From sequence record PV636258.1: 64,000 bases of DNA; one strand, given 5' to 3'. A model generated the notes under the pieces. That model had not been told where the DNA came from and searched no databases. It worked only from the letters and a program-made list of their open reading frames with translations. How positions within the stretch are numbered: the first letter of the stretch is position 1; every line of letters begins with the position of its first letter. Origin of the DNA: a phage. The position numbers were made by a program, and so were the translations under genes. Positions 12,037 through 59,619 of this stretch are shown in pieces.

Positions 12037-14766
12037 TTATTTCAGACTAATCTGAAGATTACCACCCAGCGATTGTTCATATTCACTGTATGCACTATCA
12101 CCATTACTCATAGCCCATTCGTCGGATTGGCGAGCGCGTTCAAGGGTCATGAGATTTGGCTCGGTAGGATTATAGCCTTTAGATTTCGCGTCGTTGTATA
12201 CCGTTTGCAGGTATTGGTTGGCACGGTTGATCTGATCCTTGAATTCACGATATGCTCCTTCGGTCGTATTGCGACGGAAAGTGATATCCCAAGCAACATT
12301 CAGAACTGTACCATTACTGGCTGTGTATACCTGCCAATCCAGATCTCGTCCATTAGGAGCGCTGTCACGAATGGATTCGGCATAGGTGGCCAGATCACCT
12401 GCATTCTTACCTCCAGCAGCCTGATCTTTAGCCCGAGCCAGAGCATCAATGACTGCTGTGCGGTTCCTGGACTGCGCCAAATCTTTGTCTTGGAACATAA
12501 TCGCGCCAAATTTACTGACAGTGATGTCATTCAGGAACAGATTGTTAGGGTTATAGTTTGATGAACTGAGGTGGCTCAGTTGCGACGCTGCGTCTTTCAG
12601 GCGTCGAGAAATCTCATCCAATGCATCTTGCACTGATTTGACAGACAACGAAATATCATATCCATTGCTGTCTACTACATTTCGACCATTTTCAGTCAAC
12701 ATGGTGGTGATGTTGGCTTTGTTTCGATCGAAGTCGTAAGTTACGTTGGTAACGAATCTTGCGGCTTGCAACTTGCTGCCAGCAGGGAACTGGAAATCCC
12801 ACGCTACAGAGAAGCCATGAACGGTTTCACCAAAAAATTTAGCATTGCTTGGTACTTTGATGTTTGCAGTGATCACTGCATTTTCACTGGAATTGGTGTT
12901 GATTTCACCAAAGATAGTACGCTCGTCGGAAGATTGAACCAACAGAGTATCTTTTCCACGCCAATCATAGCGGACTTTGAATGTTGTACGAGGAAACTCT
13001 TTCATCAGATCAAGTTTGACCGCCTTGCCCAAGGTAAACCGATTCAGCAGAGCGTCAGCGATCTTCAATGTGAAAGAACCGCAATCAACGTAAGAATATC
13101 CCTGAGAACGGGAAATTTTTTGAATCGGATATGGGGCACCGTTAATAGGAACAACACGGCATTCTACTTCTCCTGCAAATTGAGAATCGGCTGCACGGGA
13201 GATTGCGCCCACTATTTCATAAGCGGCGTTTTTCACGTCTCCTTCCAGCATAAGTTGGTCATGACCAGACAAATCTGATACTACTTCTACAGAAAGTTTT
13301 CCGTTGACAATTCCCCAGAAATAAACCTGAATGTCCAGACCACCCGAAGTACGATATTTGCCCGCACCGATTCGTGTTAGTTTCTCACCTGCATACATAC
13401 CGACCTGTTGTGGAGCATATGTATCAACGATACCCAAGATGCGGGCGATATAACCCTGGTTGCGCAGATCATCCATAGAACCGGTTTTTGGAAGAGTTTT
13501 CATGTCGACGGGAGCAGTAGCCCCTATTCCAAATTCAACATATGCCACAATCTTGCCGCCGGACTTCAGTTCCCACCCCATTCCCTGACGGTCAGAAGCT
13601 GCCATGATTTTGCGATCCACTTCACCGCGACCGACATATTCTTTGTTGAATACGGTCACCTGAGCGATAGATTGGGAGCGGGCAATCTTCGCCATTGCGC
13701 CATCTTTGACCATGATGGCCAGATCATTGGAACTCAGAGTCACATCGTTCGCACCGACTACCTTCACAACAGAACTGAAGATACCGTTGGACTTCGCCAT
13801 GATTGAAATGTTCCAGTCAGGATTGGTAGAATCTGAATTGCTGGTGTCAACATCCACAACAAGTACAACCTGCCCGCCTTTCTTGAACGTGTACTGGTCA
13901 TACAACCCTTTCTTCTGTTTAGACATGTCTGCGCCGATTAAGTCCTGGTTGGTGAAACCGCGCTTCATGCTCCAGGATACTTCTGTGCCATCCAGGTATT
14001 TATCAAAATTGTAGCCATAGAAGGTGGCAACTTCACGGGAACCGCTCACCAGTCGGACGTAGTTTCCGCGGATAGGGTCGCGACCATTCTTCAATTCAAG
14101 GCTAGTGTCGGAAGAGTTATACCAATCACGGTTGACTTCAACCTCTGAACTGTTGTAAGAAGATGAAGTCCCCACATCCAGAGTATCGTTCTGAACCGGA
14201 ACGTCACCGACTTTGTCCGGATCATCCCATGTGACACCTTTCATTTTCGGGCCATCAAATACCTGAGCAGGATCCTTACCTTTACGCACAACCCATACAA
14301 ATGCACGATCAGGGATAGGGGTATACGTCAGGTCCATGACATTGAGCTTCTGCTTCAGGCCGGACTGACGGATGATCTTCGGCAGGAGGGTAACACCACG
14401 TTCCAATGCTTTCTTGGAGAAGTTAATTGCAAAGCCGTCAATGGTTTTACCCAAAGGCGTCGCCATGAATTGCTTTGTTGCTTCAATCATGGATGCGATA
14501 ACGCGCATCGGATTCTTGAAACGACCGATGGCATCGGGATATGTGGAACCACGCTTCTGACCGATAAAGACTTGGCGAACATTCTTGCCTAGACCTTGTG
14601 GGGTATAGAATTGAATACGGAATTCTTTTTCGTCTTCATCAACAAATGTGAAGAAAATGTCGCCAGCGTTCTTCTTGCCGAATGTCAATTCATACGGGGA
14701 TGAGTTAAACGCTTCGTCTAATTGTTTAGACTCTTCAAGAAAGTTCAAGAAAGATGGGATGGCCAT
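12037..14766 (-). CDS. large hypothetical protein (909 aa)
   Basis: long uninterrupted ORF, AGGAGA SD; no motif recognised. Confidence 0.7.
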   Translation of the reverse strand: MAIPSFLNFLEESKQLDEAFNSSPYELTFGKKNAGDIFFTFVDEDEKEFRIQFYTPQGLGKNVRQVFIGQKRGSTYPDAIGRFKNPMRVIASMIEATKQFMATPLGKTIDGFAINFSKKALERGVTLLPKIIRQSGLKQKLNVMDLTYTPIPDRAFVWVVRKGKDPAQVFDGPKMKGVTWDDPDKVGDVPVQNDTLDVGTSSSYNSSEVEVNRDWYNSSDTSLELKNGRDPIRGNYVRLVSGSREVATFYGYNFDKYLDGTEVSWSMKRGFTNQDLIGADMSKQKKGLYDQYTFKKGGQVVLVVDVDTSNSDSTNPDWNISIMAKSNGIFSSVVKVVGANDVTLSSNDLAIMVKDGAMAKIARSQSIAQVTVFNKEYVGRGEVDRKIMAASDRQGMGWELKSGGKIVAYVEFGIGATAPVDMKTLPKTGSMDDLRNQGYIARILGIVDTYAPQQVGMYAGEKLTRIGAGKYRTSGGLDIQVYFWGIVNGKLSVEVVSDLSGHDQLMLEGDVKNAAYEIVGAISRAADSQFAGEVECRVVPINGAPYPIQKISRSQGYSYVDCGSFTLKIADALLNRFTLGKAVKLDLMKEFPRTTFKVRYDWRGKDTLLVQSSDERTIFGEINTNSSENAVITANIKVPSNAKFFGETVHGFSVAWDFQFPAGSKLQAARFVTNVTYDFDRNKANITTMLTENGRNVVDSNGYDISLSVKSVQDALDEISRRLKDAASQLSHLSSSNYNPNNLFLNDITVSKFGAIMFQDKDLAQSRNRTAVIDALARAKDQAAGGKNAGDLATYAESIRDSAPNGRDLDWQVYTASNGTVLNVAWDITFRRNTTEGAYREFKDQINRANQYLQTVYNDAKSKGYNPTEPNLMTLERARQSDEWAMSNGDSAYSEYEQSLGGNLQISLK

Positions 14767-31264: not shown

Positions 31265-31582
31265 TTACTTGCGCAGGGCAACGACGAGTTCAGCTAACTC
31301 TCCGAGGGTAGGATCATCTCCATGTTTACCCACCCACTCGTCACTAATTTCTACATCGTACTCTTCTTCGATTTCCATGACCAGCTCAATCATGTCAAGA
31401 TCGTCACCGCCGAGATCATTCTTAACCCGTAACGGCGCTAAAGCATCGATATTATCATCAATGTTATCAAACTTGTCCTTGTGATCCCCGTTGCGCCAAG
31501 TTTCCATGTTCAGGTTGTCACAAGCGTACTGAGCCAGAACACGCATTACTTCAACATAAGTTGGTTTGTTTGACATAAGCAT
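31265..31582 (-). CDS. acyl-carrier-protein-like protein with Asp in place of the phosphopantetheine-attachment Ser
   Basis: DLGGDDLDMIELVMEIEEEYDVEISDE aligns with ACP helix II ([27 protein letters not shown]); codons GAC GAT CTT GAC verified on the DNA. Confidence 0.7.
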   Translation of the reverse strand: MLMSNKPTYVEVMRVLAQYACDNLNMETWRNGDHKDKFDNIDDNIDALAPLRVKNDLGGDDLDMIELVMEIEEEYDVEISDEWVGKHGDDPTLGELAELVVALRK

Positions 31583-31619: not shown

Positions 31620-33836
31620 TTAGATTTTGACTTCTTTTTCAGCCAGTTCGGCAGTGACGGTGTATTTCACCCCATCAACTTCCACATCCATAGTGGATTC
31701 TTCCAAATCCAGGTCGGTAAACCAACCATGGCCTGCAACAATCCCATAAACTACCTTGGACAGCGTTTTGTTCAGGGCGCGGACTTCGTTGATAGCTGCT
31801 TTTGCTGCGTCTCCGATCCAACTTTCGATCAGCTTTTTCTGAGTCTCTTCCGGTACGCTGGTGATCATCGGTGATTTAACGAATGCATTGTATTCAGCCA
31901 GGGCATTAGCGATCAGCTGATCAGCGACATTCAGTTTTTTACCGTCCGTCTGTTTTTTGATAACAGACGCGATGCTCGGCAGTGAAGATGCGCCTTTGAT
32001 TTTCACATTCAATTCACGACTCATATAGACATCGGTTGATTCTACAGAAGAAGTCTTCGGTGAAAATCCATAGTCGCGAATGCCGTTTGCTGACAGGAAA
32101 TCAGCCGCTTCTTTGCCATATTTTGAAGCCAGACCAGTAGCGTTGCCTTTGCCAACCAGTTCATCACGGTAGAATTTCAGAACTTTCTGTTTTGCCTTCA
32201 ATGCTTCACGGCGCACATTGTCTGCAAAGAATTCAGCAGCACTGATATTCTTTGTCATGGCGCGGTTAACCATTGGGACACTTTCCAGATTTACAATGAA
32301 GACTTCCGGCCCACCAAACACATGAACACCCATGGCAGTCAAATCCTGTGCCACCTTAGCCCGAACAATCGGAGAATCTGCAGTGATAGGCATTGTTTTC
32401 AGGTTGATGATACCATCCTTGACAATAGTGTAATTACGATAACGCCAGGTTCCCAGCTCTTCAGGAAGTTCATATTTCTTCTGTACAAACTCAGGCACAA
32501 CAACCGTTCCGTGTTGAACTGTCTGCACACTGATGTTAGGACGTTCTGAATTATAGACCAAATTGCTGATCGGGACAATCCCTTTATCATCTGCTGGATT
32601 GAATTCGGGGGTCCAATCTTCGTGCTCGGCCAGTTTGAGCGCCAGGGCTTTACGCTCTTCTTTAGAAGTCGCATTCGCAATCTCTTCGGCCAACTTGTCT
32701 TCGGTGTCATCAACTTTCTGTACAGTACCGCGCCCAATGCTCTTGTAAGAGAATAGCGGATGCTTGGTGACGATAGAGACATCTGCTTCAGCCAGATACG
32801 TCAGAACATCAACAATGGTGGTGGCGTCTTCAGCCGGAACCATATTATAATCGATGCCATCAACTCCTCGCAGAGATTCGTCTACGATAGCCTGAGTCAG
32901 ATCGACTTTGATGTTGGAATAGTCCTGCTTGGTGAAACAGTTGCTGTATTGTTTGATGAAGCGGACGTCACCCGTCTTCTTCAGCGCGGCCCAGACCAAA
33001 TCGGCGTCCATGGTGTACACGCCATAGAATGCCAGCACGTATGCCGCCTGGGTGTCTGCCAGATTATCCAGCTGGTCGATCATGTTGGGGTTTACAACCC
33101 ACAGCTGAGAAACGCTTTCAGGGATGCTGACGTGGCCAATAGGGTGCTCTTCATCAGGATGCACGGCTAAAACAGTCGCCACACCATTTTCAACATAAAT
33201 GGCATGGGTGTAAACCAGGGGAACATCGACCACCACTTTCGGTGAAGAAGTTTTCAGCACGTTTTCCAATTCGGTCTGATATTCATTCTGGCCTTCGGCG
33301 AATACGTGGGTCGCACCAGAACGTTCTGCCATTAGCCCCAGCAGTTCGCGATTACAATACCAACCGTATTCGATGAAGGTAATGTTATCAAACGCTTTGG
33401 GCAGTACTTCAGCGGCATCCAGGATTTCATTAGAACGCCAGCAGTTGTCATATCCGTCGGTCATGAATGCCAGGTTATTAACATAACCAGGTTTATTCAG
33501 GCTAATGGCAGTTTCCGCAGCCAATTTCAGCGGCTCAACAAAACCAGTACAACCAGAAGGCTTCAGGAAACGGTCAATTAGATTATTGATCTCACTGAGA
33601 TCAGTTGCACTGTTAATCTGACGTCCGGCAAATACCGTTCCGAAATCACCGCGAGATGAAAAGTAAAGGATGCTCACAGTATCTTCCGGTTTCACCAGGG
33701 AAGGCAGGTTCTCCTTCAGATGCTTACGGACTTCTGGAAGTGAACGATACATGGAACCGGAGATATCCACAACGATTACATGGTTAGACGGCGCGACGGT
33801 CGCAACCGCATTCTTAAATGTTAATGATTCAATCAT
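31620..33836 (-). CDS. von Willebrand factor A-domain protein (738 aa)
   Basis: N-terminal vWA with MIDAS DISGS (VIVVDISGSM); long C-terminal region unassigned; ATG 33836 preferred to track start 33974 (TTG). Confidence 0.75.
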   Translation of the reverse strand: MIESLTFKNAVATVAPSNHVIVVDISGSMYRSLPEVRKHLKENLPSLVKPEDTVSILYFSSRGDFGTVFAGRQINSATDLSEINNLIDRFLKPSGCTGFVEPLKLAAETAISLNKPGYVNNLAFMTDGYDNCWRSNEILDAAEVLPKAFDNITFIEYGWYCNRELLGLMAERSGATHVFAEGQNEYQTELENVLKTSSPKVVVDVPLVYTHAIYVENGVATVLAVHPDEEHPIGHVSIPESVSQLWVVNPNMIDQLDNLADTQAAYVLAFYGVYTMDADLVWAALKKTGDVRFIKQYSNCFTKQDYSNIKVDLTQAIVDESLRGVDGIDYNMVPAEDATTIVDVLTYLAEADVSIVTKHPLFSYKSIGRGTVQKVDDTEDKLAEEIANATSKEERKALALKLAEHEDWTPEFNPADDKGIVPISNLVYNSERPNISVQTVQHGTVVVPEFVQKKYELPEELGTWRYRNYTIVKDGIINLKTMPITADSPIVRAKVAQDLTAMGVHVFGGPEVFIVNLESVPMVNRAMTKNISAAEFFADNVRREALKAKQKVLKFYRDELVGKGNATGLASKYGKEAADFLSANGIRDYGFSPKTSSVESTDVYMSRELNVKIKGASSLPSIASVIKKQTDGKKLNVADQLIANALAEYNAFVKSPMITSVPEETQKKLIESWIGDAAKAAINEVRALNKTLSKVVYGIVAGHGWFTDLDLEESTMDVEVDGVKYTVTAELAEKEVKI

Positions 33837-34005
33837 CGTTTTGACCTTTTTGGGCTTTGGAGTGTTTGGAGTTCGCGTCGGCGTTCTCCAGCATAGTTTC
33901 AATGAAATCCCGGTTGTTTTCCATTTGGGCGACCAGAACATCACTGGGACGGAATGAATTGTCAAGACAATCAAGTCCGGCGCGTTTTAATTTGTTGTCG
34001 GTCAT
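33829..34005 (-). CDS. small hypothetical protein (58 aa)
   Basis: ATG 34005 downstream of promoter-like TTGGCA...TATAAT; stop 2 nt before vWA ATG. Confidence 0.35.
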   Translation of the reverse strand: MTDNKLKRAGLDCLDNSFRPSDVLVAQMENNRDFIETMLENADANSKHSKAQKGQNDD

Positions 34006-34155
34006 CAGGCTCTCGTGAGTTATATTTCCCAACTATTTCAACATGGGACTATTATATTACGACAGGCGGTATTGATGCCAATTAATATAATAAAAATGCC
34101 CGATTGAATATAACCGGGCATTATATTATTGACAGGTTGAAATATTATTCAGAGC

Positions 34156-35028
34156 TTATTTAAAGGAGTCTACAATGGATTTGAAAATATAATCTTTGGA
34201 GCGTTGTTGTACCGGGAGTTCTCCATACGGAACCATGCAAGGGTGTTGCTTGGTCTGAGGGTCTTTGACTGGGCCATACACCCATCCCTCAGCCTCCTTC
34301 TCCGCCATCCAGCTCTCATGCGATTCGCTGGGCTTACGATCACCAGTGAGATGGAAGATAACACCTTTGCAAGCGCTCTCACGCTGCCAGGCCGGAGATT
34401 GTTCCCAAGGCAGTTGAGAGTCGTCACCAACAGACTTGCAGTATGCGCGGTTGGCTTCATGACAAATCTTGGCGATGCGCAGAACCAATGGCGAATAAGT
34501 GAGATTGAGTTTGGAGTTGGCGCGCAGGAAATCACTAACAGCCTTACGAGATTTGGCGTTGTGAGAGTCAACAACAAGTTCCATGTCATCCGGCCCACAA
34601 ACGAAAGACGCCAAGAAGCGCTCGCCATTTTCCGCTCTGAACATCACGTCCTGAATCATCACATTGAAGCCGAGGTGATAGGCCGGGCAGAGGGCGCTAC
34701 GTTCAACAGCGTATTGATCGATCCGGATCTCTGCCGTTTCCGTGGCTTTGGCCAACAGATCTTGTTCAACAAGCGCCCGGTACGCCTCCAGCTGCCACAG
34801 CTGGTCGAAGGTGTTATTGTAGGAAATCTCTTTGCCCAGGGCTTCATCGAAGTTGGCCGGGTCTATGGATGTGCTGGGCTTGGTGCCGTGAACGACGAAG
34901 CCGTTATCCATCTTGAAATGACAAGTGATAGCCCGGTGACCGCCGACTTCGCGGTCTTCGTAAATCACCTCAGCGATATGTGACTTCAGGACTTCAGGAG
35001 TGAGTTTGATGCCAGTACGAGTTGTCAT
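34156..35028 (-). CDS. RyR-domain protein (290 aa)
   Basis: C-terminal HESWMAEKEAEGWVYGPVKDPQTKQHPCMVPYGELP matches ryanodine-receptor (RyR) domain signature; AGGAT SD. Confidence 0.65.
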   Translation of the reverse strand: MTTRTGIKLTPEVLKSHIAEVIYEDREVGGHRAITCHFKMDNGFVVHGTKPSTSIDPANFDEALGKEISYNNTFDQLWQLEAYRALVEQDLLAKATETAEIRIDQYAVERSALCPAYHLGFNVMIQDVMFRAENGERFLASFVCGPDDMELVVDSHNAKSRKAVSDFLRANSKLNLTYSPLVLRIAKICHEANRAYCKSVGDDSQLPWEQSPAWQRESACKGVIFHLTGDRKPSESHESWMAEKEAEGWVYGPVKDPQTKQHPCMVPYGELPVQQRSKDYIFKSIVDSFK

Positions 35029-35036
35029 GTGTTATC

Positions 35037-35411
35037 CTATGATATTTGTTTACAGACCTCCACTACTTTACGGCACATGACGATATCGAACAAGCCGATA
35101 TGGCAATCGCGCTTCTTGATCCCCAGATTATGAGCCAGCCAGCTGTAAGCATCACTCCTGCTCCTCTGCCCACTTTTCCAGATAGGGTCAAACGACCTAT
35201 GAGCTTCCTGCTTAGCAGCACGGAGAGCGGCATTCGCCATCCTTCCCAGAGGTTGTCTACCATCCCCATGGGTATGGCAACCCACACGAGCGTCGCATGG
35301 CGAGCATCCCCAGAACTTCAGTTTGTGTAGATCTGGGCGATGAGGGTAGAGTACATCACCACTGACGTATTTGGCAGGAAGACCGCAATAATCACAAATA
35401 ACTTGTTTCAT
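35037..35411 (-). CDS. Cys-rich zinc-ribbon protein (124 aa)
   Basis: CDYCG...CSPCDARVGCHTH cysteine cluster. Confidence 0.55.
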   Translation of the reverse strand: MKQVICDYCGLPAKYVSGDVLYPHRPDLHKLKFWGCSPCDARVGCHTHGDGRQPLGRMANAALRAAKQEAHRSFDPIWKSGQRSRSDAYSWLAHNLGIKKRDCHIGLFDIVMCRKVVEVCKQIS

Positions 35412-35422
35412 ATTCTTTACCT

Positions 35423-35447
35423 AAAAGAAACCCCGCACACGGCGGGG
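35423..35447 (-). terminator. rho-independent terminator
   Basis: hairpin ccccgc/gcgggg followed by TTTCTTTT on minus strand. Confidence 0.55.
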
Positions 35448-35470
35448 TTGCTCAGGCCGGAGCCGACAGA

Positions 35471-35842
35471 TTATTTCAGGAGTTTTTCCAGTTCTTCAAC
35501 AGAGAGACCTTCCAGTTCCTGCTGTTTCTTACGCTGGATCAGTTCCATGATCGCCTGGTTATTCGCTTTACGTTCGGCGGCGGTTGCGCTTTCGTCACGT
35601 TCTTTCAGTTTAACACCGATGATCGCTTTCACGATATCGAAACGCAGTTGTAACTGAGAGTCGACTGCGCTTTTCACGCCGATGAAATCTTCTTCATCGC
35701 TGGCGGCTTCCTTCACCTGACGGCTGAGGTCTTTCGCCAGTTCGTTTAGGGCATTCAGGTTCAGATCCCAAACCTGCTCAACAGACAGCAGACCTTTGTT
35801 AGAGTTGAAACGCAGTTTTAAACGGGTTGCTTGATCAAACAT
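35471..35842 (-). CDS. hypothetical coiled-coil protein (123 aa)
   Basis: ATG 35842 with AAGGAA SD. Confidence 0.55.
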   Translation of the reverse strand: MFDQATRLKLRFNSNKGLLSVEQVWDLNLNALNELAKDLSRQVKEAASDEEDFIGVKSAVDSQLQLRFDIVKAIIGVKLKERDESATAAERKANNQAIMELIQRKKQQELEGLSVEELEKLLK

Positions 35843-35880
35843 TTCTTTGTTCCTTATTACGAATTTGTGGTCAAAATCAA

Positions 35881-37899
35881 TTAGAAAATGACTTTTACAG
35901 TACGGTTAAACGCGCCGGACACTTTGACGAACACGTGGTTGCGTTGCGTCGTTGAGAATCCCAGACCGGACAGTTGGTTTTCATTCGGCTGGACTTTCAT
36001 TTTACTACCCAACATTTCAAAAACCTTACGATGTTTATCCAGTTCTGGCTTCAGATATTCGTTGTAGAAACCACGAGTACCTTCAGGATTAGCACAGCCT
36101 TCAAGAATGAAGAACACGTGCTTGTTACCAGTTTGCTCCCCATCCCAATGGTTTGGTGAATTCAGGACCAGCTGTACTTTCTGGAAGGTCGCAGTCTTGA
36201 TACCCCAAACTTCTTTAGACTTATCAACATTAGCCAGTTCGGACTTAATGCCAACAACTTGTTTGTCTTTAACAGTCAGGATGACTGCAGTGATACGCCC
36301 CTGATCTTTCAGGCCAGGATGGCTGAAACGATGCGTTGCGCCTTTGTATTCTACTTCGACTTCAAACCCTTCGTCGATTTTTTCACGTTGATTGTAGTTG
36401 TGGATTTCGAAACGGTATTCACCATCGCGCAGCTTGCTTTCATCTGTAAAGATGATATTTTCCACCGGAGCGCGGTTTGGATCAATACCATCCATACCGT
36501 TCATATCGATATCCAGATGGGCACCTGTCATAGAGCGGCGATCGCGGAAGTAAACGTGCTCCATGTTGTTGAACATATGCAGATCGAGGTCGTCGTTATT
36601 GTGCCACGCCAAGGAAACGCGCAGATACCCGTCAACTTTACCACCAGCAGCCTTTACACGTTCTTTAATGGAATCGGTCACTTCACCGTTGTAAGACCAG
36701 GAGAAACCGTTGTTCCACTTGAACAGGTTAGGCGCATCTGGGTTCGCCGGAGCAACCAGGGACATCAGGTTGCTAGTGTGAGAATTCTCTACAAGCACTT
36801 CCATTGAATGCGCTTTTGGCAGAACATTGCTCAGGAAATCATCAACGCTGATCTCTTCAACTTTTTCCAGGGACTTGGTCGGAGTTTTCACTTCGGCGGC
36901 CAGCTGAGCAAACGGATCCATCGCTTTCTGAGCAGCCAGGTCGGCAAACAGAACGTTGTTGATGGTCAGATCATCGTAAACCGCATAACGACGCGCCAGT
37001 GAGTCTTCCAAACCCAGAGCAATAACTTCTTTCTGAGCGTTTTCGATCATGGATTTTGAAACCAGCGCTGTCGGACGTTTGTAGTTCGCCGGAGCAACTT
37101 TGGATTCAAACGATTTAACAGCCTTTTCCAGTTCCACGCCTTCGCTGATATCTGTCAGCAGAGTGCCGATAACTGTGTTACGGATGCCGTGTGGAACATG
37201 ATTGTTTGAACGGTATCCAGTATGCCATGCCCAAAGAGAACGGGCTGATTCGGGGACTTGTTCATATGCCTTTTTGGTTTCAACAAATCCCTTCACTGCT
37301 GCTTTGTGTTCTGCGCCGCGATACAGAGAATTCTGGTCAATCAGTTCCAGAACGATTTCAGCTGATTCCAGAGTAATTTCACGCAGACCGCGTTCAAACA
37401 ATTCAATAGCCTGGCGGATTTCACCTTTTTTCGAAGCGATTGCGTCCGGACGCAGAACATAGCTACCAAGTAATTGGGTATGGAAATGATTGTAAGTACG
37501 GATTTTGCCATCTTCACCAGATTCGTGATTGTGAGACAGGCCGACTTTGGCAGAATCGTTAAAATAAACATCGACGATTGCGTGTTGTTTGACATAAGCG
37601 GAAAGAGCCGCAGCCACCACGTCATATTCATTACCCAGATCAATGTTGTCCCAGATGGAAATCACGTTCAGCTCTGAATCGATGGTGACAACACCGCCGA
37701 TGTTACGGATGAATTGTTTACAGCAGGTGCAATCGTGTTCAGTACGTTCGCGGTACAGCGGGTTAGTACCAGCAGGGAAAGATGCCAGATACAGATCCCA
37801 AAGAGCATCTTTATCGATATTGGTCATGAACAGACCAGTTGCGGACATCGCCAGCACGTTGTTATTAACTGCCGTTGCGAAGGGTTTGAATTCTGCCAT
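35881..37899 (-). CDS. large hypothetical protein (672 aa)
   Basis: ATG 37899 with AGGAAG SD; no family-B polymerase, P-loop or other recognisable motif. Confidence 0.7.
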   Translation of the reverse strand: MAEFKPFATAVNNNVLAMSATGLFMTNIDKDALWDLYLASFPAGTNPLYRERTEHDCTCCKQFIRNIGGVVTIDSELNVISIWDNIDLGNEYDVVAAALSAYVKQHAIVDVYFNDSAKVGLSHNHESGEDGKIRTYNHFHTQLLGSYVLRPDAIASKKGEIRQAIELFERGLREITLESAEIVLELIDQNSLYRGAEHKAAVKGFVETKKAYEQVPESARSLWAWHTGYRSNNHVPHGIRNTVIGTLLTDISEGVELEKAVKSFESKVAPANYKRPTALVSKSMIENAQKEVIALGLEDSLARRYAVYDDLTINNVLFADLAAQKAMDPFAQLAAEVKTPTKSLEKVEEISVDDFLSNVLPKAHSMEVLVENSHTSNLMSLVAPANPDAPNLFKWNNGFSWSYNGEVTDSIKERVKAAGGKVDGYLRVSLAWHNNDDLDLHMFNNMEHVYFRDRRSMTGAHLDIDMNGMDGIDPNRAPVENIIFTDESKLRDGEYRFEIHNYNQREKIDEGFEVEVEYKGATHRFSHPGLKDQGRITAVILTVKDKQVVGIKSELANVDKSKEVWGIKTATFQKVQLVLNSPNHWDGEQTGNKHVFFILEGCANPEGTRGFYNEYLKPELDKHRKVFEMLGSKMKVQPNENQLSGLGFSTTQRNHVFVKVSGAFNRTVKVIF

Positions 37900-38018
37900 G
37901 GTATAGTCTTCCTGTTTCAGTTCAAATGTGCGCCCCGTTTGCCAGGGCGCTTCGTTTAAGTGAGGTCAATAATACGTTGAAAAGAGTTATTGAAGAATGA
38001 AGTAAAGGGAATCTTTAT

Positions 38019-38243
38019 TCAGACGATCTTACCGCCGTCACAAGGCCGAGTATCACCGGAGTTGTATGCCAGCATCCCCTGCTTCATCAAACGTCTCGGC
38101 CCAGAAACTGATTTCTGTTTCCTCAGCGTGTTGCAAAACCGAGTATTGCCTGGGTAAGGAGTGTACACGAGACGTCCTTCCATACGGGCTTTCAGAAGAA
38201 ACTCATCAGTCGCTTTACACAGTTTGAACAATTTCCAGCTCAT
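38019..38243 (-). CDS. hypothetical protein (74 aa)
   Basis: ATG 38243, ATGA overlap with HNH gene stop. Confidence 0.4.
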   Translation of the reverse strand: MSWKLFKLCKATDEFLLKARMEGRLVYTPYPGNTRFCNTLRKQKSVSGPRRLMKQGMLAYNSGDTRPCDGGKIV

Positions 38244-39169
38244 TTTTCACCCTTGTATCTTTTTAACCATTTTACGCATTTTAATGGTTCCCAGCCTTTA
38301 TTGAAACGTTCGATTATCCCACTGGTGGCATTAAACGCCTTCAGATCTTTTGTTCCATACACGAACAAGAGGGCTTCTGAACGTTTCATCGTATTCAGGG
38401 CTTCAAGGAATTGATCAGCTTTCTCCCAATATACGTCATTGTCGGGGTTCCATTTACCCTTCTCCCAAGGCATCTTAGCCAACATGCCTTTCTGAGCGTT
38501 TTCTTTCTGTTTGGCGCGTTGCTCTGGTGTGAATGAGTTGGTTAAGTCCTTCCCATAATTGGGATTGAGTTCCCCAAGTTTAGCTTTCCTGGCACGTTCA
38601 GAAAATTGTTCTAAATCCATGTTGGCGCGGCGTTTCTCTAAAACCCGCCTTTTATATTCAGGATCAGAAGCCATCCTTTCATGGATTTTCATCAATCCTT
38701 TGGTAATTTTCTTGACTTGCTCTGGAGTTCTCTTATACCCATATTGGGGATTATTCTTTCCTCTTCTCCCATACATTGGGTTGTTTGCCCCGACGCATTT
38801 AGAGACACCCTTTGTGAGTTTGGATATTCTTTGTCCAAATTCTTTCCTTAACTTTTCGTAAAGGTGAGAATTAAATTTTATGCCCGTTGGTGTATACCTA
38901 CCCCCACGGCTCATCAAAAGAACAGCATATACCATATCAGAATTCGGGAAAGCCAAGGCCAAACACACATGGGCAAGATAATGTTGCCTGCCAGTAAGTC
39001 TTGCCAAATTGATCTTGTCTTTGGAATATTCAGGGAACATGCTCTTGGGAAGGATGTGGTGTAATTCGGTGTAGTCACCATCAGGATATTTGAAAGATTG
39101 AATCATCCTCAAATACTTCTTGATAAAATGCGGTTTACCGCCTTTAGAAATCAATAATTCGTAAAACAT
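38240..39169 (-). CDS. HNH homing endonuclease with NUMOD-like repeats (free-standing)
   Basis: ELHHILPK...HYLAH His-Me finger motif; repeated NPMYG/NPQYG/NPNYG motifs; GGAG SD. Confidence 0.7.
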   Translation of the reverse strand: MFYELLISKGGKPHFIKKYLRMIQSFKYPDGDYTELHHILPKSMFPEYSKDKINLARLTGRQHYLAHVCLALAFPNSDMVYAVLLMSRGGRYTPTGIKFNSHLYEKLRKEFGQRISKLTKGVSKCVGANNPMYGRRGKNNPQYGYKRTPEQVKKITKGLMKIHERMASDPEYKRRVLEKRRANMDLEQFSERARKAKLGELNPNYGKDLTNSFTPEQRAKQKENAQKGMLAKMPWEKGKWNPDNDVYWEKADQFLEALNTMKRSEALLFVYGTKDLKAFNATSGIIERFNKGWEPLKCVKWLKRYKGEK

Positions 39170-39228
39170 AACAGGAACTCCAAATGAAAGTTCCTGTTAT
39201 AATATACTTTCTTAACTCACAAAGTAAG

Positions 39229-40431
39229 TTACTTTTTAAATAAATTTAGTAGGTTTTTAGAACCAGATGTCGTCGCTTTAGGTTGTCCTTCCCCATCGTA
39301 TCCAACCTTCCCGCGCGGTTTTTTACCTTGCTGTAAAGCCTCTACACAACGGGTGTATTTCTGAAGTTCACAAAACATATTTTCTCCTGCCATTATATTT
39401 AAATGGTGATCCCAAGGCTCTTCCGCAGACCAAAATTCTTCCCTGTTATACCCAAGAGGACCATAAACTGCGTCCTGATTATCCCGTAGCCAGAATATGC
39501 ATTCTTCATGAGTCATGCCGTCCTTATCCAGGAACATCAGGTCAATACCCGCACGGCAACCTGGACCAGCGATAGTGAAATGATTCTCACTGAATGGATA
39601 CTCAGGGATGTATGTGAAGTCCACCCAGATCTGATATGCCAGGAATGGCCCAAGCCCCTCAATGTCGTCATACATCGCCTGGTAAACAGAGTCGGGACGG
39701 CTAAATTCCCTGAGGCGATCAAAGTAATGAGGGTGTTTGTTGACGAATGCCTTCAAAGAGCGGATGACTCGCATTGGCATGTACGGCTCCCAACCCTCAA
39801 TCGTGTACTCCCCAGGATTCTCTTCAACCAGCTTCTTGGCGACCTTGTAATCCAATTCATCCACGACACCCTGGCCAACACGGTGTACCTTAACCATCAT
39901 GCCACCGAAGCGCTGCTCCTTGTGGTTGACAACCAGCTCAGGAAAAGCCAGGCATTGCTTCAGACCGCCCGTGTTGAAGGCATTGGTGAATACCTTACCA
40001 CCGTCGGCCTCGAACTTCTGAAGACGGGCGCGGGTCTCGTCCAGGTTGATTTTAGCAAAGTCTGAAATCGTCATAGCGCCCTCGAGCGCCACCTTGATCG
40101 GATCCCAGAGATTGAACATGCGGAACAGAACACAGTTGAACATTTTGTCGGCCATGCTCAGAGCGTCGTTCTTGACGATGTTGTTGATCAGGTTGAGGGA
40201 CTGCCTGTCGTGCTCTCTCCGGACGTTACAGAACTTGACCTGCCGTAGTATAGGATTATTCGTCCAAGGAGCAGGAAGACGCTGGACGTCCTTCTTGACG
40301 TGGATCTGGTAACGATCGTGCATCCATTCGTAAGACCACTTTACAATCTGCTGGTCCAGGACGGGTTTGGCAGATTTAATTTTAGCTTCCCGAACACCGC
40401 AATAAGGAATGTCACACGGTTTATCTTTCAT
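39229..40431 (-). CDS. hypothetical protein (400 aa)
   Basis: ATG 40431 with GAGGAT SD; own terminator upstream; no motif recognised. Confidence 0.65.
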   Translation of the reverse strand: MKDKPCDIPYCGVREAKIKSAKPVLDQQIVKWSYEWMHDRYQIHVKKDVQRLPAPWTNNPILRQVKFCNVRREHDRQSLNLINNIVKNDALSMADKMFNCVLFRMFNLWDPIKVALEGAMTISDFAKINLDETRARLQKFEADGGKVFTNAFNTGGLKQCLAFPELVVNHKEQRFGGMMVKVHRVGQGVVDELDYKVAKKLVEENPGEYTIEGWEPYMPMRVIRSLKAFVNKHPHYFDRLREFSRPDSVYQAMYDDIEGLGPFLAYQIWVDFTYIPEYPFSENHFTIAGPGCRAGIDLMFLDKDGMTHEECIFWLRDNQDAVYGPLGYNREEFWSAEEPWDHHLNIMAGENMFCELQKYTRCVEALQQGKKPRGKVGYDGEGQPKATTSGSKNLLNLFKK

Positions 40432-40448
40432 GGTATCCTCTCTAGAAT

Positions 40449-40477
40449 ACAAAAACAGAGGCCATTATAGCCTCTGT
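40449..40477 (-). terminator. rho-independent terminator
   Basis: hairpin cagagg/cctctg followed by TTTTTG on minus strand. Confidence 0.55.
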
Positions 40478-40500
40478 TGTTTAGTGAATAACGGATTATA

Positions 40501-41370
40501 TTAATCGAAGCGAGAGAGGTGTGTCACAGTGTTTTGAACAGGTGCGCACGCGTATACGCGAACATTAGCACCCCACACCCCACACAGCTTAGGCATATTG
40601 GTATCGTTAATGATATACGCTGGCACATAACTTTCAATTTGGCCGTTAACATCTACGGGTCGAGAAGATTTTTCAACTGCCATAGAAAGAATTACTTCCA
40701 ACGTTTTTGGAGATACCAATGCCACGCCGTTCAGATCATCAACAAATACCTGTCCTTCTTCAATTGCCATGCTGACAACGATGTCATTGATCTGACGGGA
40801 AGGGGTATTCGTCAGCATATCAGAGAAATCAGGCTCTTTGAACACAGCCATGTTTTTCAGGAATTTTCCTTTCGGATATTCTTTGCCATTCCACATCACA
40901 GTCTCATTCACTTTGATGCATGCCTGAGGGAATTCACCTTCAACGCGTAACTGGCCAACTGGGAAACCGCGTGAATAATAATATTCCAGTGCCGGACCGA
41001 CTTCATCTTCAGAGCGAATAAATTTGCTCATGTTGGAGGCATAAACACGCTGCAAGCACTCATCGCCGTTGAAACCAGCAATGTGTGCCACGCCGTCATT
41101 GACTGTTGTGATGTCGCCCTGAGCGTCCAAAATCTGGCGCATAATGTCTTTGATGTCGACAACAGCAGGTTCTTTCAGGACTCGCGGAGATGCAGTGAAC
41201 TCAATTTTCACCTCGTGGTCGAAATAAGCCGCTTCCAGTAATTCGCGGGTCTCTTCCAGAACCAGTTTGGCCTGATTGCGAATTTTACCGAAGTCAGGGG
41301 CTGTAATATCTCCAGCCGCATTACCAAAAGCCAAATTCAATCTCACGTTTTTATTAAATGTAGTTGTCAT
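40501..41370 (-). CDS. hypothetical protein (289 aa)
   Basis: ATG 41370 with TGGAG SD; follows regA. Confidence 0.6.
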   Translation of the reverse strand: MTTTFNKNVRLNLAFGNAAGDITAPDFGKIRNQAKLVLEETRELLEAAYFDHEVKIEFTASPRVLKEPAVVDIKDIMRQILDAQGDITTVNDGVAHIAGFNGDECLQRVYASNMSKFIRSEDEVGPALEYYYSRGFPVGQLRVEGEFPQACIKVNETVMWNGKEYPKGKFLKNMAVFKEPDFSDMLTNTPSRQINDIVVSMAIEEGQVFVDDLNGVALVSPKTLEVILSMAVEKSSRPVDVNGQIESYVPAYIINDTNMPKLCGVWGANVRVYACAPVQNTVTHLSRFD

Positions 41371-41386
41371 AATATAGCGACTCCAG

Positions 41387-41782
41387 TTATTCGCTTTTTG
41401 CCCGACTTGGGCGAATAGTGTATTTTGGAACCAATTTCCACTCAGAAACTTGGTCATGTTTTACAACTTTGATCCGAGACATGTCAGCCACTTCGGTTAT
41501 TTGTTCCGGATGCAAGATCTTAACCATATTCCATTGCTCCAGAAGCCGTATAATCCGATTCATACGCAGGACATCTTCACGCGTAAAGCCGTTGTAGTGC
41601 CCATCTAGCATGAACAAATGCTTGAAATGCACGATGTGATATCTGCCAAATTTATGCAGAATATGGCACGTTTGATACAAGGTGTTAGGCTCTTGACGAG
41701 TGTTAACCCCTATCCGACTCAGCGTTTCCTTGATACCCAGGAAAATCCCTGGTTTGTCTTGGTTCAATTGAACTTCAACCAT
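41387..41782 (-). CDS. regA: translational repressor RegA
   Basis: LYQTCHILHKFG...HFKH...EWKLVPKYTI closely parallels T4 RegA; start at internal ATG 41782. Confidence 0.8.
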   Translation of the reverse strand: MVEVQLNQDKPGIFLGIKETLSRIGVNTRQEPNTLYQTCHILHKFGRYHIVHFKHLFMLDGHYNGFTREDVLRMNRIIRLLEQWNMVKILHPEQITEVADMSRIKVVKHDQVSEWKLVPKYTIRPSRAKSE

Positions 41783-41880
41783 ACAGTCAACAATGCTGGC
41801 CTCATCGTTGACAGCTGAAAGTTTTAAGATGTCCAGCGTATTACGCGCCATGACTCATACCCCTTTAACAATTATTTGAA

Positions 41881-42303
41881 TTACTTAGCCTTGCGCGGTT
41901 TGGCTTTTTCGTTGCTGTTGGAACGTTCGACCTTCGCCTTGATTTCAGCCAGGACTTCTTTCGGCAGGAATCGAACATATTCTGAAGCCTTTTCAGGACT
42001 GATGTAATAATACTCAGAAATCAATTTTACATCAGGATCCATAGCTCCCTTCTTAGACCACTTGTCATAGCGACGTTTTGCCGGAATGCTATGAAACGCC
42101 AGGTTCCATTGCATCCAAGGAGTAATGGCATGGAAGCGGTTCATTTGTTCAGCAACCACAAGCGTGTCTTTACTCTGAGCAAGGCCGCGCCGAGTCATGA
42201 AAGGATCAAATGCCTTTCTGATTTCGGGGTCTTCGGTCATCAACAGATTCTCTTTGGTGCTATTCAACGCACCGAGGTAATCGAACAGTGACGGAGCGGC
42301 CAT
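41881..42303 (-). CDS. 62: clamp-loader small subunit (gp62-like)
   Basis: position between 44 and regA; IPAKRRYDKWSKK resembles T4 gp62 VPRGKRYGKWAK. Confidence 0.65.
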   Translation of the reverse strand: MAAPSLFDYLGALNSTKENLLMTEDPEIRKAFDPFMTRRGLAQSKDTLVVAEQMNRFHAITPWMQWNLAFHSIPAKRRYDKWSKKGAMDPDVKLISEYYYISPEKASEYVRFLPKEVLAEIKAKVERSNSNEKAKPRKAK

Positions 42304-42307
42304 AATA

Positions 42308-43297
42308 TTACTTCCATTTGATGTTGAGCATGACGTTAGTCAAGAAGTAAACGCCGTGTAACCAGACGTCGCCGACGGAACGATGTTCAATCTGAGACTG
42401 ACCACAGACACATACCAGATCAGGGATTGACTCTTTTTGAATCAAAGGAGCCTTTTCCTTGTTCTGGGGAACGCAGAAATGGAAGAAACGGGAATAAAAA
42501 TCTTCAGTGATGTAGTTTTGGTTGTCGGTCACCCACTGCTTCATCCCAGCCCAATCATTGGTTTTCAGGAAATCAACCAACGCTTGGAATTCCCCTGCTT
42601 TAACCTGTGCCAGAGCGCGTTCATCGATTTTACCAAACGTGGTGGCATTATCCTGAAGAGTTCCCATAATTTTGCGATTATCTGGGAAATATGATTTCAC
42701 AATGGAAGCAATTACACCAGCTTCATACGGAATACCTTCCTCTGTCAGGATAGTTGCGCAACGACGCATGAATTGGAGTTTAACTTCATCTGCTTCCTTT
42801 TCGGACCAGATAAAATCAATTTCACGACAGCGGGAACGCAGAGGTTCGTTAACGCGCTGTTTCGCATTAGTCGTCAGGATGAAGGAGCAGTTTTTGGAGA
42901 CTTTCTCTACGATGCCTTTCAGGGATTCCTGCGCCGCCATGGAAAGTCGCTCAACTTCATCGAGGATAACGACTTTGCGGCCACCGAAAACACTGACGCC
43001 AGTTGCGTATTGAATAACACGGTCACGGATGACATCAATGCTGTTATCCAGTGACGCATTGATCATCAACGGTTTGATGCAACCGATTTCGTTACACACA
43101 GCCAGAGCAGAAGTAGTCTTGCCCGTACCAGGCTGAGGGGAATAGAACAGCATTGAGGGGATGTTTCCATTGCCTGATGTAACATAGCCATGGATTTTTG
43201 CACGGACGTCTGAAGGGAGGACGATCTCATCCAGATTGTCAGGGCGATATTTGTTTTCCCACGCGTATTGATCTGTGACGATAGTGATGTTAGACAT
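42308..43297 (-). CDS. 44: clamp-loader large subunit, AAA+ ATPase (gp44-like)
   Basis: Walker A PQPGTGKTT, Walker B ILDEVE, SRC-like motif SRC (PLRSRCREI). Confidence 0.9.
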   Translation of the reverse strand: MSNITIVTDQYAWENKYRPDNLDEIVLPSDVRAKIHGYVTSGNGNIPSMLFYSPQPGTGKTTSALAVCNEIGCIKPLMINASLDNSIDVIRDRVIQYATGVSVFGGRKVVILDEVERLSMAAQESLKGIVEKVSKNCSFILTTNAKQRVNEPLRSRCREIDFIWSEKEADEVKLQFMRRCATILTEEGIPYEAGVIASIVKSYFPDNRKIMGTLQDNATTFGKIDERALAQVKAGEFQALVDFLKTNDWAGMKQWVTDNQNYITEDFYSRFFHFCVPQNKEKAPLIQKESIPDLVCVCGQSQIEHRSVGDVWLHGVYFLTNVMLNIKWK

Positions 43298-43375: not shown

Positions 43376-44044
43376 TTAATCCAGCTGCATGCCGACGTAA
43401 TAGTTGATGGTGCCGTCTGCGGATTGGAAGTTAACCAGTTGCATTTCGGCACAGGCGCGGATCACGTAGTTGCCTTCGATCATTTTCAGGTTGACCACAT
43501 CAACAGGCATAGCAAAATCACCCAGAGTTGTTTCACCCAACTCAACAGTGTAATCGTTGGAATTGTCGATAGTAGTGGTCGTGCCCACCAGACGAGTTTT
43601 ACCGCCGCTGGCAACCAGACGTACAGTTTTGTGACCCAGAGTAGAACAGGCGCGAGTCAGCTCTTTCATTTTTTCAGGAGTGACCGTTGCTTCAAATTCT
43701 ACAGACGGAAGATCGATGCTGTCTGCCGGAACGACAGTCAGTTCTTTAGCGGAACGCCAGAATTGCAGTTGGGAGTTTTCACCTTTCAGCAAAATGTGGT
43801 CTTCTGACATTTCAATTTTACCGCCTTTAAAACTCGGCAGACGCTGGATTGCCAGCAATTTGGTCAGATCCAGAATCGGGAATTCGAACGGGAAGTCTTC
43901 GTCGATGTCGGCAATAGCGATAACTGTACTGGAATCGTTAACAGTGCGCAACTTTTTACCAGGTGCCAGAACGATAGAGGGGCAGATGGTTTCAAAGTTA
44001 GCCAGCAGTTGTAAAGTGCGTTCGGAGAGAGTGATCTCTTGCAT
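43376..44044 (-). CDS. 45: sliding clamp (gp45-like)
   Basis: 222 aa; N-terminus LSERTLQLLANFETI parallels T4 gp45 LSKDTTALLKNFATI; GAGGA SD before ATG 44044. Confidence 0.8.
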   Translation of the reverse strand: MQEITLSERTLQLLANFETICPSIVLAPGKKLRTVNDSSTVIAIADIDEDFPFEFPILDLTKLLAIQRLPSFKGGKIEMSEDHILLKGENSQLQFWRSAKELTVVPADSIDLPSVEFEATVTPEKMKELTRACSTLGHKTVRLVASGGKTRLVGTTTTIDNSNDYTVELGETTLGDFAMPVDVVNLKMIEGNYVIRACAEMQLVNFQSADGTINYYVGMQLD

Positions 44045-44382
44045 TAGTTGTATCCTCAAAATATAGTGGGGTTCAAGTCATATTTGACGCAAATTAGTAT
44101 CGCGTGTTTGTAGTTATAGAACAAGTAATAAATTGCCCTACGCGCGATAAATAAATGCCTGACGGCATTTATAATATTCTGTTTTAATAAAACCTTTCTT
44201 TATCAGTCTACTCGCTTCGCTCGTGATAATACTCGTTGCTCGCAAAGCTCACAACTCGTATATTACGCACGGATTGTTCAACAAGAAAGCGATTTTTATT
44301 CAACAATTAAAATATTTTATTTGGTCTAAACAGAGCATGACATTATTATGTAGCCAAGTTTGCTAACACGCGAGAAATACAT

Positions 44383-58596: not shown

Positions 58597-59130
58597 TTAC
58601 AATGACTTGTCAGAAACGGCTTGGAAATAACGCAAGTCGACAGTGAACTGTGTGTAAGAGTCCATTGCCGACATATCGAGTTCCAGTTGGCCGAGGTTTT
58701 GAGGCCAGCCGCCCTGTAAAGTCCATGTCTTAGTCACGTTGTCATTCGCGTCCAGAAGTTCCATGATGATATCACGGAAATAATCATCTGGATTCGCGCT
58801 GGCGCGGTTGTTTTCACTACCGTTGATGAATTGCTGCCACACTTCAAAAGCATTGTATGGAGCGTTGTTCACCACGTTAATGAACGTCACAGGAAGCGCT
58901 TCGAAACGACGATCCCCTGGGAACGGAAGTTCACGACCACCCCAGGGCACCAGAATTTCGCCCAGCTGACCTGTTGGGGTGTTGGTGGTTACAGCCAGCA
59001 AGGACACGTCACGAATTGTGTCGGAACCAGCAACAAAAGAAGGAAAGTTTACAGTCACACGCCAGCGGTGTTGGCGTTGTACGCCGCCCCCTCGTGACAT
59101 GGCTGCGCGAAACTCATTGACTGTCGCCAT
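58597..59130 (-). CDS. 19: tail tube protein (gp19-like)
   Basis: 177 aa immediately downstream of sheath gene region; GGAGAT SD. Confidence 0.8.
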   Translation of the reverse strand: MATVNEFRAAMSRGGGVQRQHRWRVTVNFPSFVAGSDTIRDVSLLAVTTNTPTGQLGEILVPWGGRELPFPGDRRFEALPVTFINVVNNAPYNAFEVWQQFINGSENNRASANPDDYFRDIIMELLDANDNVTKTWTLQGGWPQNLGQLELDMSAMDSYTQFTVDLRYFQAVSDKSL

Positions 59131-59160
59131 TTTTATATCTCCAAATAAGAGTACACAATT

Positions 59161-59619
59161 CTAATTAGTCGTCAATCTTTTAATCTTCATGGAAGAAAAA
59201 TCAAATCCGTGGTCAACATTGCTTAAAACGGGTTCGATTTCACACAATTCCCAACGGGGATCTATGAGAGAAACAAGACCAATGTGTTCACCTGTGGATG
59301 TCAATTTTGCTGCAGTTTTACCCAGCATATGACTTCCATCATTACCGCCTTTATTCATGTTGTAACCCATCTCATAAGAATTATATTGAGCGATGAGTTG
59401 CTTCTCTAATTCCCATTTATGGACTTCATCGGTCTGAGCAATTACAACGAAAGTAAATCCAGATGTTCCATACTTACGCATAGCATCATACAATTCACTT
59501 TGGACTCCATGATGAAAAGCATTCGCAAAATGCTGATCATATCTTCGTTGTGGGTGATTGGTCACACCGATGTAGACCTTTCCATTAGTTATCGTTTCAA
59601 TTTTGTATGCGTATATCAT
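59161..59619 (-). CDS. GIY-YIG homing endonuclease (free-standing, between genes 18 and 19)
   Basis: N-terminal IYAYKIETITNGKVYIGVT...RRYDQH GIY-YIG motif. Confidence 0.8.
   Translation of the reverse strand: MIYAYKIETITNGKVYIGVTNHPQRRYDQHFANAFHHGVQSELYDAMRKYGTSGFTFVVIAQTDEVHKWELEKQLIAQYNSYEMGYNMNKGGNDGSHMLGKTAAKLTSTGEHIGLVSLIDPRWELCEIEPVLSNVDHGFDFSSMKIKRLTTN

Follow-up and report, generated by a model that had tools for sequence, protein, structure and literature searches.

Which genes follow regA in a T4-like replication cluster when the DNA polymerase gene 43 is not found there? This question is raised by a locus within a 64,000-nucleotide (nt) stretch of a phage genome (sequence record PV636258.1; the whole stretch is hereafter the window), in which regA is followed by open reading frames (ORFs) of 289, 400 and 672 amino acids (aa) and by an HNH endonuclease gene. 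An earlier note, made from the sequence alone, had described the conserved order 45-44-62-regA and these ORFs as we find them, had seen the set as occupying the position of gene 43 in T4, and had guessed at enzymes of nucleotide or DNA-base modification. Our analyses make it very probable that the locus as a whole is best explained as three unrelated units, namely modification genes, a mobile HNH insertion and a DUF8224 cassette. Both the 289-aa gene and the 400-aa gene are parts of the family's thymidine-hypermodification apparatus, which leads from 5-hydroxymethyldeoxyuridine (5-hmdU) to 5-(2-aminoethoxy)methyl-deoxyuridine (5-NeOmdU). The evidence consists of identities, folds, orthology, synteny and co-occurrence, from which all catalytic activities are inferred.

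The source is a Salmonella phage, a Kuttervirus (Ackermannviridae, ViI-like). The interval is 99.8% identical over 6.5 kb to Salmonella phage vB-SalM-PM10 (hereafter PM10), 281 related phage records, nearly all of them from Ackermannviridae, match the 6.5 kb around the locus, and the window corresponds approximately to PM10 12.7-76.7 kb, with the gene order and strand of the locus identical in the PM10 and ViI (Vi01) annotations. Being a near-copy of published Kuttervirus genomes, the window is ordinary as a genome feature; its gene set was already known, and the thymidine-hypermodification system of the Kuttervirus family has been experimentally dissected. In the ViI-like family about 40% of thymidines are converted to 5-NeOmdU, post-replicatively from 5-hmdU (PMC5889632; PMC8989533). 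The genes of the locus are all encoded on the minus strand:

43376-44059, minus strand: gp45
42308-43297, minus strand: gp44
41881-42303, minus strand: gp62
41387-41851, minus strand: regA (Pfam Translat_reg, 4e-35)
40501-41370, minus strand: 289-aa ORF, predicted all-alpha nucleoside triphosphate (NTP) pyrophosphohydrolase
39229-40431, minus strand: 400-aa ORF, HMUDK_hel / aGPT-Pplase clade 1
38240-39169, minus strand: 309-aa HNH ORF, predicted free-standing homing endonuclease with NUMOD3
38019-38243, minus strand: 74-aa ORF overlapping the HNH stop codon, no family
35881-37899, minus strand: 672-aa ORF, DUF8224 (PF26675)
35471-35842, minus strand: 123-aa ORF, phrog_2018, helical, partner of DUF8224

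The earlier note had left out the 74-aa ORF and the 123-aa ORF, the latter lying beyond the interval that it covered. An NCBIfam scan of four ORFs at the locus gave no match, PADLOC gave none for any protein of the region, and PDB sequence and profile searches with the 289-, 400- and 672-aa proteins returned nothing significant.

The polymerase gene is simply elsewhere. Motifs of the DxxSLYPS and YGDTDS types had zero matches in the six frames of the whole 64-kb window, which confirms the reported absence of family-B polymerase motifs, and the DNA polymerase of PM10 is annotated at 110416-113412, about 60 kb off, adjoining the second kinase and the transferase genes. This arrangement is standard in the family (ViI and Acinetobacter phage SH-Ab 15599, hereafter phage 15599), and the idea that the set replaces gene 43 is not supported. 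A 909-aa ORF (12037-14766; PM10 gp037), the largest unassigned gene in the window, was considered as a polymerase and rejected, as it has no Pfam match and PM10 has its polymerase annotated at another place. In phage 15599, also a member of the Ackermannviridae, regA is directly followed by a transferase gene (contig L180, 3922-5251). The gene orders of phage 15599 and Kuttervirus therefore indicate that thymidine-modification genes, the 400-aa gene among them, are regularly located behind regA in this family.

Two genes of the thymidine-hypermodification apparatus

The 400-aa ORF matches Pfam PF18723 (HMUDK_hel, aGPT-Pplase clade 1) at 3.4e-80 and 269.9 bits (cut-off 25), the match covering profile positions 2-279 of 281. 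Its product is 78% identical over the full length to ViI orf00160 (Vi01_130c), which has the same neighbours. The ViI orf-to-gp numbering was checked (gp67 = YP_004327432 = orf00067; Table 1, PMC8989533), and the ViI ortholog is therefore gp160, a protein listed as aG/PT-PPlase1 and one of the five ViI proteins in the lysate reconstitution of 5-NeOmdU (PMC5889632). One GenBank record already names the ortholog Pplase1, and the families suggested as comparators in the earlier note, 5-hmdU DNA kinases and aGPT-Pplases, prove to be the correct ones.

Other parts of the pathway lie outside the window: a dUMP hydroxymethylase, two 5-hmdU DNA kinases and a serine:DNA transferase, to which the ViI literature adds a pyridoxal phosphate-dependent decarboxylase. 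Outside the window PM10 carries HMUDK_HMUD1 (3e-114), HMUD2 (1e-149), ADDT (gp188) and a ThyA-like gene. The gene neighbourhood of the HMUDK_hel family varies between phages. More distant Ackermannviridae-like contigs (L111-L114) show the order kinase 2, transferase, HMUDK_hel, with kinase 1 and a ThyA-like gene a few kb further in three of the four (L112-L114); in PaMx11 the HMUDK_hel gene comes directly after a kinase gene, in phage 15599 a homolog stands beside the dUMP hydroxymethylase and dTTPase/dUTPase genes (L180 8961-12326), and in Kuttervirus the 400-aa gene is adjacent to neither kinase. We found no mention of the phage 15599 homolog (AXF41385.1) in the 2026 paper on the pathway of that phage.

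As a side observation, the 5-hmdU DNA kinases are annotated as 'terminase small subunit' in PM10, ViI and PaMx11, and the second PM10 kinase as 'guanylate kinase', labels which look like propagated misannotations. The genes concerned are:

L004 1041-1703: kinase, apparently misannotated
L002 18204-18866: kinase, apparently misannotated
L087 19218-19787: kinase, apparently misannotated
L005 6809-7714: kinase, apparently misannotated

The 289-aa ORF matches phrog_2144 ('MazG-like pyrophosphatase', 3.5e-135) and phrog_671 ('nucleotide pyrophosphohydrolase', 9e-19), and its ViI ortholog is Vi01_131c (orf00161; 83% identity). The close family of this protein has 204 members, all in Ackermannviridae-type contigs and without a Pfam tag. 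A profile search of 1.8 billion representatives extended it to 340 relatives, mostly 150-260 aa long and matching residues 1-190; 44 of these were scanned, giving PRA-PH (12), MazG (4), MazG-like (2) and a fusion to thymidylate kinase (1). Residues E40, E43, D82, D86, K169 and K172 are invariant, the four acidic positions across the wider set from the profile search. Judged by these sequence relationships, the protein is an all-alpha NTP pyrophosphohydrolase with an N-domain of the MazG/PRA-PH superfamily (residues ~1-190), followed by a C-terminal region of about 100 aa found in Ackermannviridae only. It would hydrolyse dTTP and/or dUTP, which would lead to the incorporation of 5-hmdUTP. A precedent is provided by the pathway-linked dTTPase/dUTPase gp18 of phage 15599, in which a diaminopropane-thymine pathway has been experimentally defined (PMC13458397).

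Two observations weigh against this assignment. The 289-aa ORF has no direct Pfam match (PF03819, PF01503 and PF12643, even at E 10) and no PDB sequence match, and PM10 has two further all-alpha pyrophosphohydrolase candidates, a dUTPase_2 protein adjoining the ThyA-like gene and another protein annotated as MazG-like, so that the substrate of the 289-aa protein is not fixed to dTTP or dUTP. Comparison by hhalign of the 289-aa family with the phage's own dUTPase_2 and MazG-like proteins gave nothing.

Possible reactions of gp160-type proteins

The 400-aa protein has a helix-hairpin-helix DNA-glycosylase-like fold, as in the glycinyltransferase PUGT, which acts on phosphorylated 5-hmdU (5-PmdU), with a GPGC hairpin at residues 289-292 and an E350-N-M-F-C354-E355 motif. 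The catalytic residues of PUGT are E243, T244 and C247 (PMC11472151). The corresponding motif reads V-E-T-I-L-C-K-W in PUGT, G-E-N-M-F-C-E-L in the 400-aa protein and V-E-H-T-L-C-E-F in PaMx11 gp50, another PF18723 member; E350 and C354 align with E243 and C247 of PUGT in the best hhalign segment, which is limited to the catalytic motif and is not significant (E 0.14). A Glu-x-x-x-Cys(-Glu) motif is present in 64 of the 67 PF18723-family ORFs from viral contigs, PaMx11 and phage 15599. The fold, the conserved Glu and Cys and the gene context together point to a catalytic role, that of a base-flipping enzyme whose target would be a 5-substituted uracil in DNA, attacked at C6. As a paralog of the amino-acid:DNA transferases, the 400-aa protein would most likely attack C6 of phosphorylated 5-hmdU in DNA.

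Kinship with the transferases could also mean that the protein is itself a second group transferase, either placing another nucleophile on 5-PmdU as a minor modification or acting redundantly with gp247. Its fold class is that of the transferases, its Glu and Cys would correspond to their catalytic residues, and the literature treats aGPT-Pplase 1 and the transferases as a paralogous pair. We nevertheless regard this as improbable: the 400-aa protein has no match to PF18724 (aGPT-Pplase2), which PM10 gp188 and PaMx11 gp46 do match, a single extra nucleoside has been reported in ViI DNA (PMC5889632), and gp247 is necessary in lysate drop-outs, so that gp160 cannot substitute for it (PMC8989533). 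An hhalign comparison of the 400-aa family with PM10 gp188 (ADDT) gave nothing.

The Pfam name, 'kinase helical domain', implies instead that the protein assists the 5-hmdU DNA kinases without being a catalyst itself, as a DNA-binding, base-flipping or site-selecting subunit. Such a role would agree with the fusion of an HMUDK_hel domain to the kinase in SP10 gp186 (Table 3, PMC5889632), with the gene order in PaMx11, with the dispensability of HMUDK_hel for the chemistry in vitro, and with the phosphorylation of only about 23% of sites by the M6 kinase alone (PMC8989533). The SP10 kinase domain, however, is active without its HMUDK_hel domain (PMC8989533), the Kuttervirus gene adjoins neither kinase, and a transferase-like Glu-x-x-x-Cys-Glu motif kept throughout nearly all members is hard to explain in a pure binding subunit. 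We therefore hold this role to be possible, though unlikely.

Catalytic attack on C6 thus remains the preferred reading, and several published results weigh against it. In vitro, gp247, a kinase and gp226 suffice, and gp160 has been given no role (PMC8989533); the set of phage 15599 genes that was co-expressed in E. coli lacked the HMUDK_hel homolog and installed the modification (PMC13458397). Moreover, no activity has been reported for any HMUDK_hel member in the literature that we searched.

Regarding the product of such an attack, we favour a tentative proposal, although we consider it rather unlikely to be correct as it stands: HMUDK_hel/aGPT-Pplase1 proteins would convert 5-PmdU in DNA back to thymine. 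According to Lee et al. (PMC5889632), the 5-hmdU bases of PhiW-14 and SP10 DNA become, in situ, thymidine or else the hypermodified base; for the thymidine branch, no assigned enzyme turned up in the searchable literature. According to this proposal, 5-PmdU sites left un-aminoacylated would be resolved to thymine by the gp160-type protein, through attack of the Cys on C6 and formation of an exocyclic methylene as in the transferases, the latter being trapped by a hydride donor rather than by an amino acid. The chemistry is plausible: when M6 gp51 is given 5-PmdU DNA but no glycine, the methylene intermediate can be trapped with borohydride, which yields dT (PMC8989533). Thymine regeneration would explain why HMUDK_hel and the kinase occur together in all characterised hypermodifying phages, why the hypermodified base can be made without HMUDK_hel, and why canonical T is kept at about 60% of ViI T positions in a family that seems equipped to deplete dTTP. 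If true, it would fill the thymidine branch and add a reductive step at the DNA level to the pathway. Being conserved in all characterised thymidine-hypermodifying phages, with the Glu/Cys pair kept, gp160-type proteins merit specialist attention.

The HNH insertion, the DUF8224 cassette and the unity of the locus

The modification genes are separated from the 672-aa gene by an insertion of about 1.2 kb relative to ViI. The features that delimit the units of the locus are as follows:

40454-40478, minus strand: terminator-like hairpin (11-bp stem and U-run) between the 289-aa and 400-aa genes
38032-39239, minus strand: insertion of ~1.2 kb, from pairwise alignment with ViI
39170-39198, minus strand: 12-bp hairpin directly 5' of the HNH start codon, within the inserted segment
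37930-37950, minus strand: GC-rich hairpin upstream of the 672-aa gene
35429-35449, minus strand: intrinsic-terminator-like hairpin closing the DUF8224/123-aa unit

The HNH gene and the 74-aa ORF (BI092_gp070, without family) both lie in the insertion, which starts within the gp160-type gene, taking the place of its last codons, and ends at the stop codon of the 74-aa ORF; ViI has only a 112-bp gap at this site. The free-standing HNH endonuclease described in the earlier note is borne out by the matches of the 309-aa ORF to phrog_655 ('homing endonuclease', 8e-64), phrog_12434 (HNH, 1e-17) and Pfam NUMOD3 (22.9 bits, cut-off 20.4), and by its annotation as a homing endonuclease in PM10 and others. 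A close copy was present in only two of the related loci fetched (100% and 85% identity) and is absent at this site from ViI and most relatives. By its sequence, the HNH gene with its 74-aa ORF is a mobile element, a typical putative free-standing homing-endonuclease insertion. A second mobile element of the window, a GIY-YIG homing endonuclease gene (~58781-59239; PM10 gp102), is flanked by the genes of the tail tube and the tail sheath and is also found in ViI.

The 69-nt segment between the 289-aa and 400-aa genes folds at -21 kcal/mol (z -4.08), and the hairpin at 39170-39198 at -18.5 kcal/mol (z -4.08). The GC-rich hairpin at 37930-37950 keeps its stem, GCGCCC/GGGCGC, in ViI, with a loop that differs in sequence and length, a pattern which suggests selection on the structure as a putative terminator or processing site. 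The claim that each gene has its own terminator or hairpin consequently stands after the 289-aa gene, after the 400-aa gene and before the 672-aa gene; it does not extend to the 38-nt gap between the 672-aa and 123-aa genes, in which no hairpin or structure was found.

The 672-aa protein belongs to DUF8224 (PF26675). The model was not in the local Pfam copy, and the assignment was made through the precomputed tags of homologs, PF26675 being present in 119 of the 120 listed, one of them 97% identical. Over 7,500 homologs carry the tag, and the protein occurs, as a hypothetical protein, in 559 phage records of unrelated groups, including Ackermannviridae, the Cronobacter CR3 group, Caulobacter phiCbK, Bacillus BC01, Stenotrophomonas Pokken and Microcystis LMM01. 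Identity amounts to 42-52% between phages of Proteobacteria, Firmicutes and others, and to 37% for a cyanophage. In the loci examined (window 35471-37899, L006-L086 and L152-L179), 75 of the 81 viral ones had a homolog of the 123-aa ORF on the same strand as DUF8224, and in 55 cases this homolog followed at a distance of 13-103 bp downstream; among 28 genome contigs it came immediately downstream in 24-25. No modification gene co-occurred with DUF8224 outside Ackermannviridae in these loci, where only the 123-aa partner did; neither member of the pair is found in the thymidine-modifying phage 15599. The non-Ackermannviridae phages carrying DUF8224 are not known to hypermodify thymidine. DUF8224 and the 123-aa ORF thus make up an autonomous cassette of two genes, mobile between unrelated phages and the chromosomes of some actinobacteria; the cassette has no part in the modification pathway and is no evidence for base modification. 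This pair, hitherto undescribed, is among the more widespread uncharacterised gene pairs of phages and also merits specialist attention.

The earlier guess at nucleotide or base modification accordingly holds for the 400-aa protein, a clade 1 member and gp160 ortholog, and for the 289-aa protein, a predicted pyrophosphohydrolase, and fails for the 672-aa protein. Similarly, the three ORFs had been said to belong to no recognisable family, which is contradicted outright by the PF18723 match of the 400-aa ORF and is valid for the other two at the level of direct Pfam matches only, given phrog_2144 and the profile link to PRA-PH/MazG in one case and the named family DUF8224 in the other.

Could the three large ORFs still form one base-modification module in place of gene 43? 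Two of them are linked to modification, and the transferase gene after regA in phage 15599 indicates that this slot does collect modification genes. Against a single module, the units are parted by hairpins and a mobile insertion, the polymerase is intact elsewhere in the genome, and DUF8224, spread over many unrelated phage families and absent from phage 15599, is accompanied outside Ackermannviridae by its 123-aa partner alone. We consider such a module highly improbable.

In the 672-aa protein, an N-terminal alpha/beta and helical region, in which C57-x-x-C60 is invariant, is followed by a TerD-like Ca-type beta-sandwich at ~420-560 and by a C-terminal beta-rich domain. As our best guess, it would be a Ca-binding protein, either an enzyme or a ligand binder, with a universal substrate; this guess is weakened by the fact that the fold match concerns one of about four domains and a generic Ca-binding sandwich. 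The Pfam TerD profile (PF02342) gave no match on the excised beta-sandwich of 19 members at E 10. Two other candidates were rejected: a link between the vWA protein encoded nearby (784 aa) and DUF8224 after the model of TerY/TerD, as the two co-occur only in Ackermannviridae bar one weak match, and an RNA polymerase, the label in a few GenBank records, for which no family or fold match was found.

Alternatively, the pair might be a conflict system, serving anti-defence in phages and defence or a toxin-antitoxin-like function in bacteria. Proteins of the TerD family are encoded in ter loci, which have been associated with phage resistance, and a compact two-gene unit moving between unrelated phages would fit such a role, as would its occurrence in Actinoplanes among ordinary chromosomal genes, in contexts that differ by species. 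The pair has no PADLOC match, however, its conservation across phages of different bacterial phyla is unlike that of fast-evolving conflict genes, and there is no experimental lead, so that we judge this alternative to be quite unlikely. In about a dozen Actinoplanes/Micromonospora genomes the pair occurs as an orphan; in Paractinoplanes pyxinae it is flanked by genes for a GDSL lipase and a LacI regulator, with a beta-lactamase-family gene, an MFS transporter and ABC sugar-transport genes nearby, and in most other Actinoplanes species its surroundings are different.

Several database records deserve comment. The ViI record splits the DUF8224 gene into two ORFs (Vi01_128c and Vi01_129c; L003 20301-22320), both noted orf00158, as does that of phage 38, whereas the window and most relatives have a single 672-aa ORF; this suggests a frameshift or a sequencing error in the ViI record. 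'Enterococcus phage Efm 3-10' (OR844942.1, 111 kb) has Kuttervirus-type genes and a DUF8224 97.9% identical to that of the phage studied here, and 'Pseudomonas phage Pa-sanjiao' (MN871475.1, 158 kb) has a Kuttervirus-type HMUDK_hel gene; both records are probably mislabelled or contaminated. Just downstream of the cassette (window 31620-35411), four genes are conserved together only within Ackermannviridae, namely those of the 784-aa vWA-domain protein, a DUF3268 zinc-finger protein, an acyl-carrier-protein-like 105-aa ORF (31265-31582) and a 290-aa N4 gp49/Sf6 gp66 plus RyR protein.

Comparison with known systems

The order 45-44-62-regA is the same as in the T4 cluster 45-44-62-regA-43; T4 has gene 43 after regA, whereas in this phage gene 43 is not adjacent and thymidine-modification genes occupy the slot. 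The closest counterpart of the 400-aa protein, ViI gp160, is of the same length class, has the same Pfam domain and holds the same position between the MazG-like and DUF8224 genes; the two differ in their C-terminal tails, since the gene studied here runs at its end into the HNH insertion. From the amino-acid:DNA transferases of PF18724 (PaMx11 gp46/PUGT, PDB 8Z2M; M6 gp51; ViI gp247) the 400-aa protein is far more distant, with about 10% identity, a profile alignment that is not significant and an extra beta-containing insert of about 60 residues (150-215); the 400-aa type is not needed for the hypermodification in vitro. The 289-aa protein shares the acidic E-x-x-E ... D-x-x-x-D signature with phage 15599 gp18 and MazG/HisE-type enzymes and, like gp18, is encoded in a thymidine-hypermodifying phage. 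It is not an ortholog of gp18, its best relative in phage 15599 being a different gene (E 2.8e-7), and its C-terminal extension sets it apart.

The HNH unit resembles the free-standing HNH endonucleases of T4-like phages in its combination of HNH and NUMOD3, its intergenic position and its presence/absence polymorphism among close relatives; unlike them, it carries an additional 74-aa ORF, and its activity is predicted. Finally, the beta-sandwich domain of the 672-aa protein shares its fold with TerD (PDB 2QZ7 and 2KXT), the Ca-binding beta-sandwich of tellurite resistance. It differs in lacking a Pfam TerD match and in showing weak similarities to DUF2135 and to a subtilase jelly-roll, and it is one of about four domains in a protein whose other parts match nothing.

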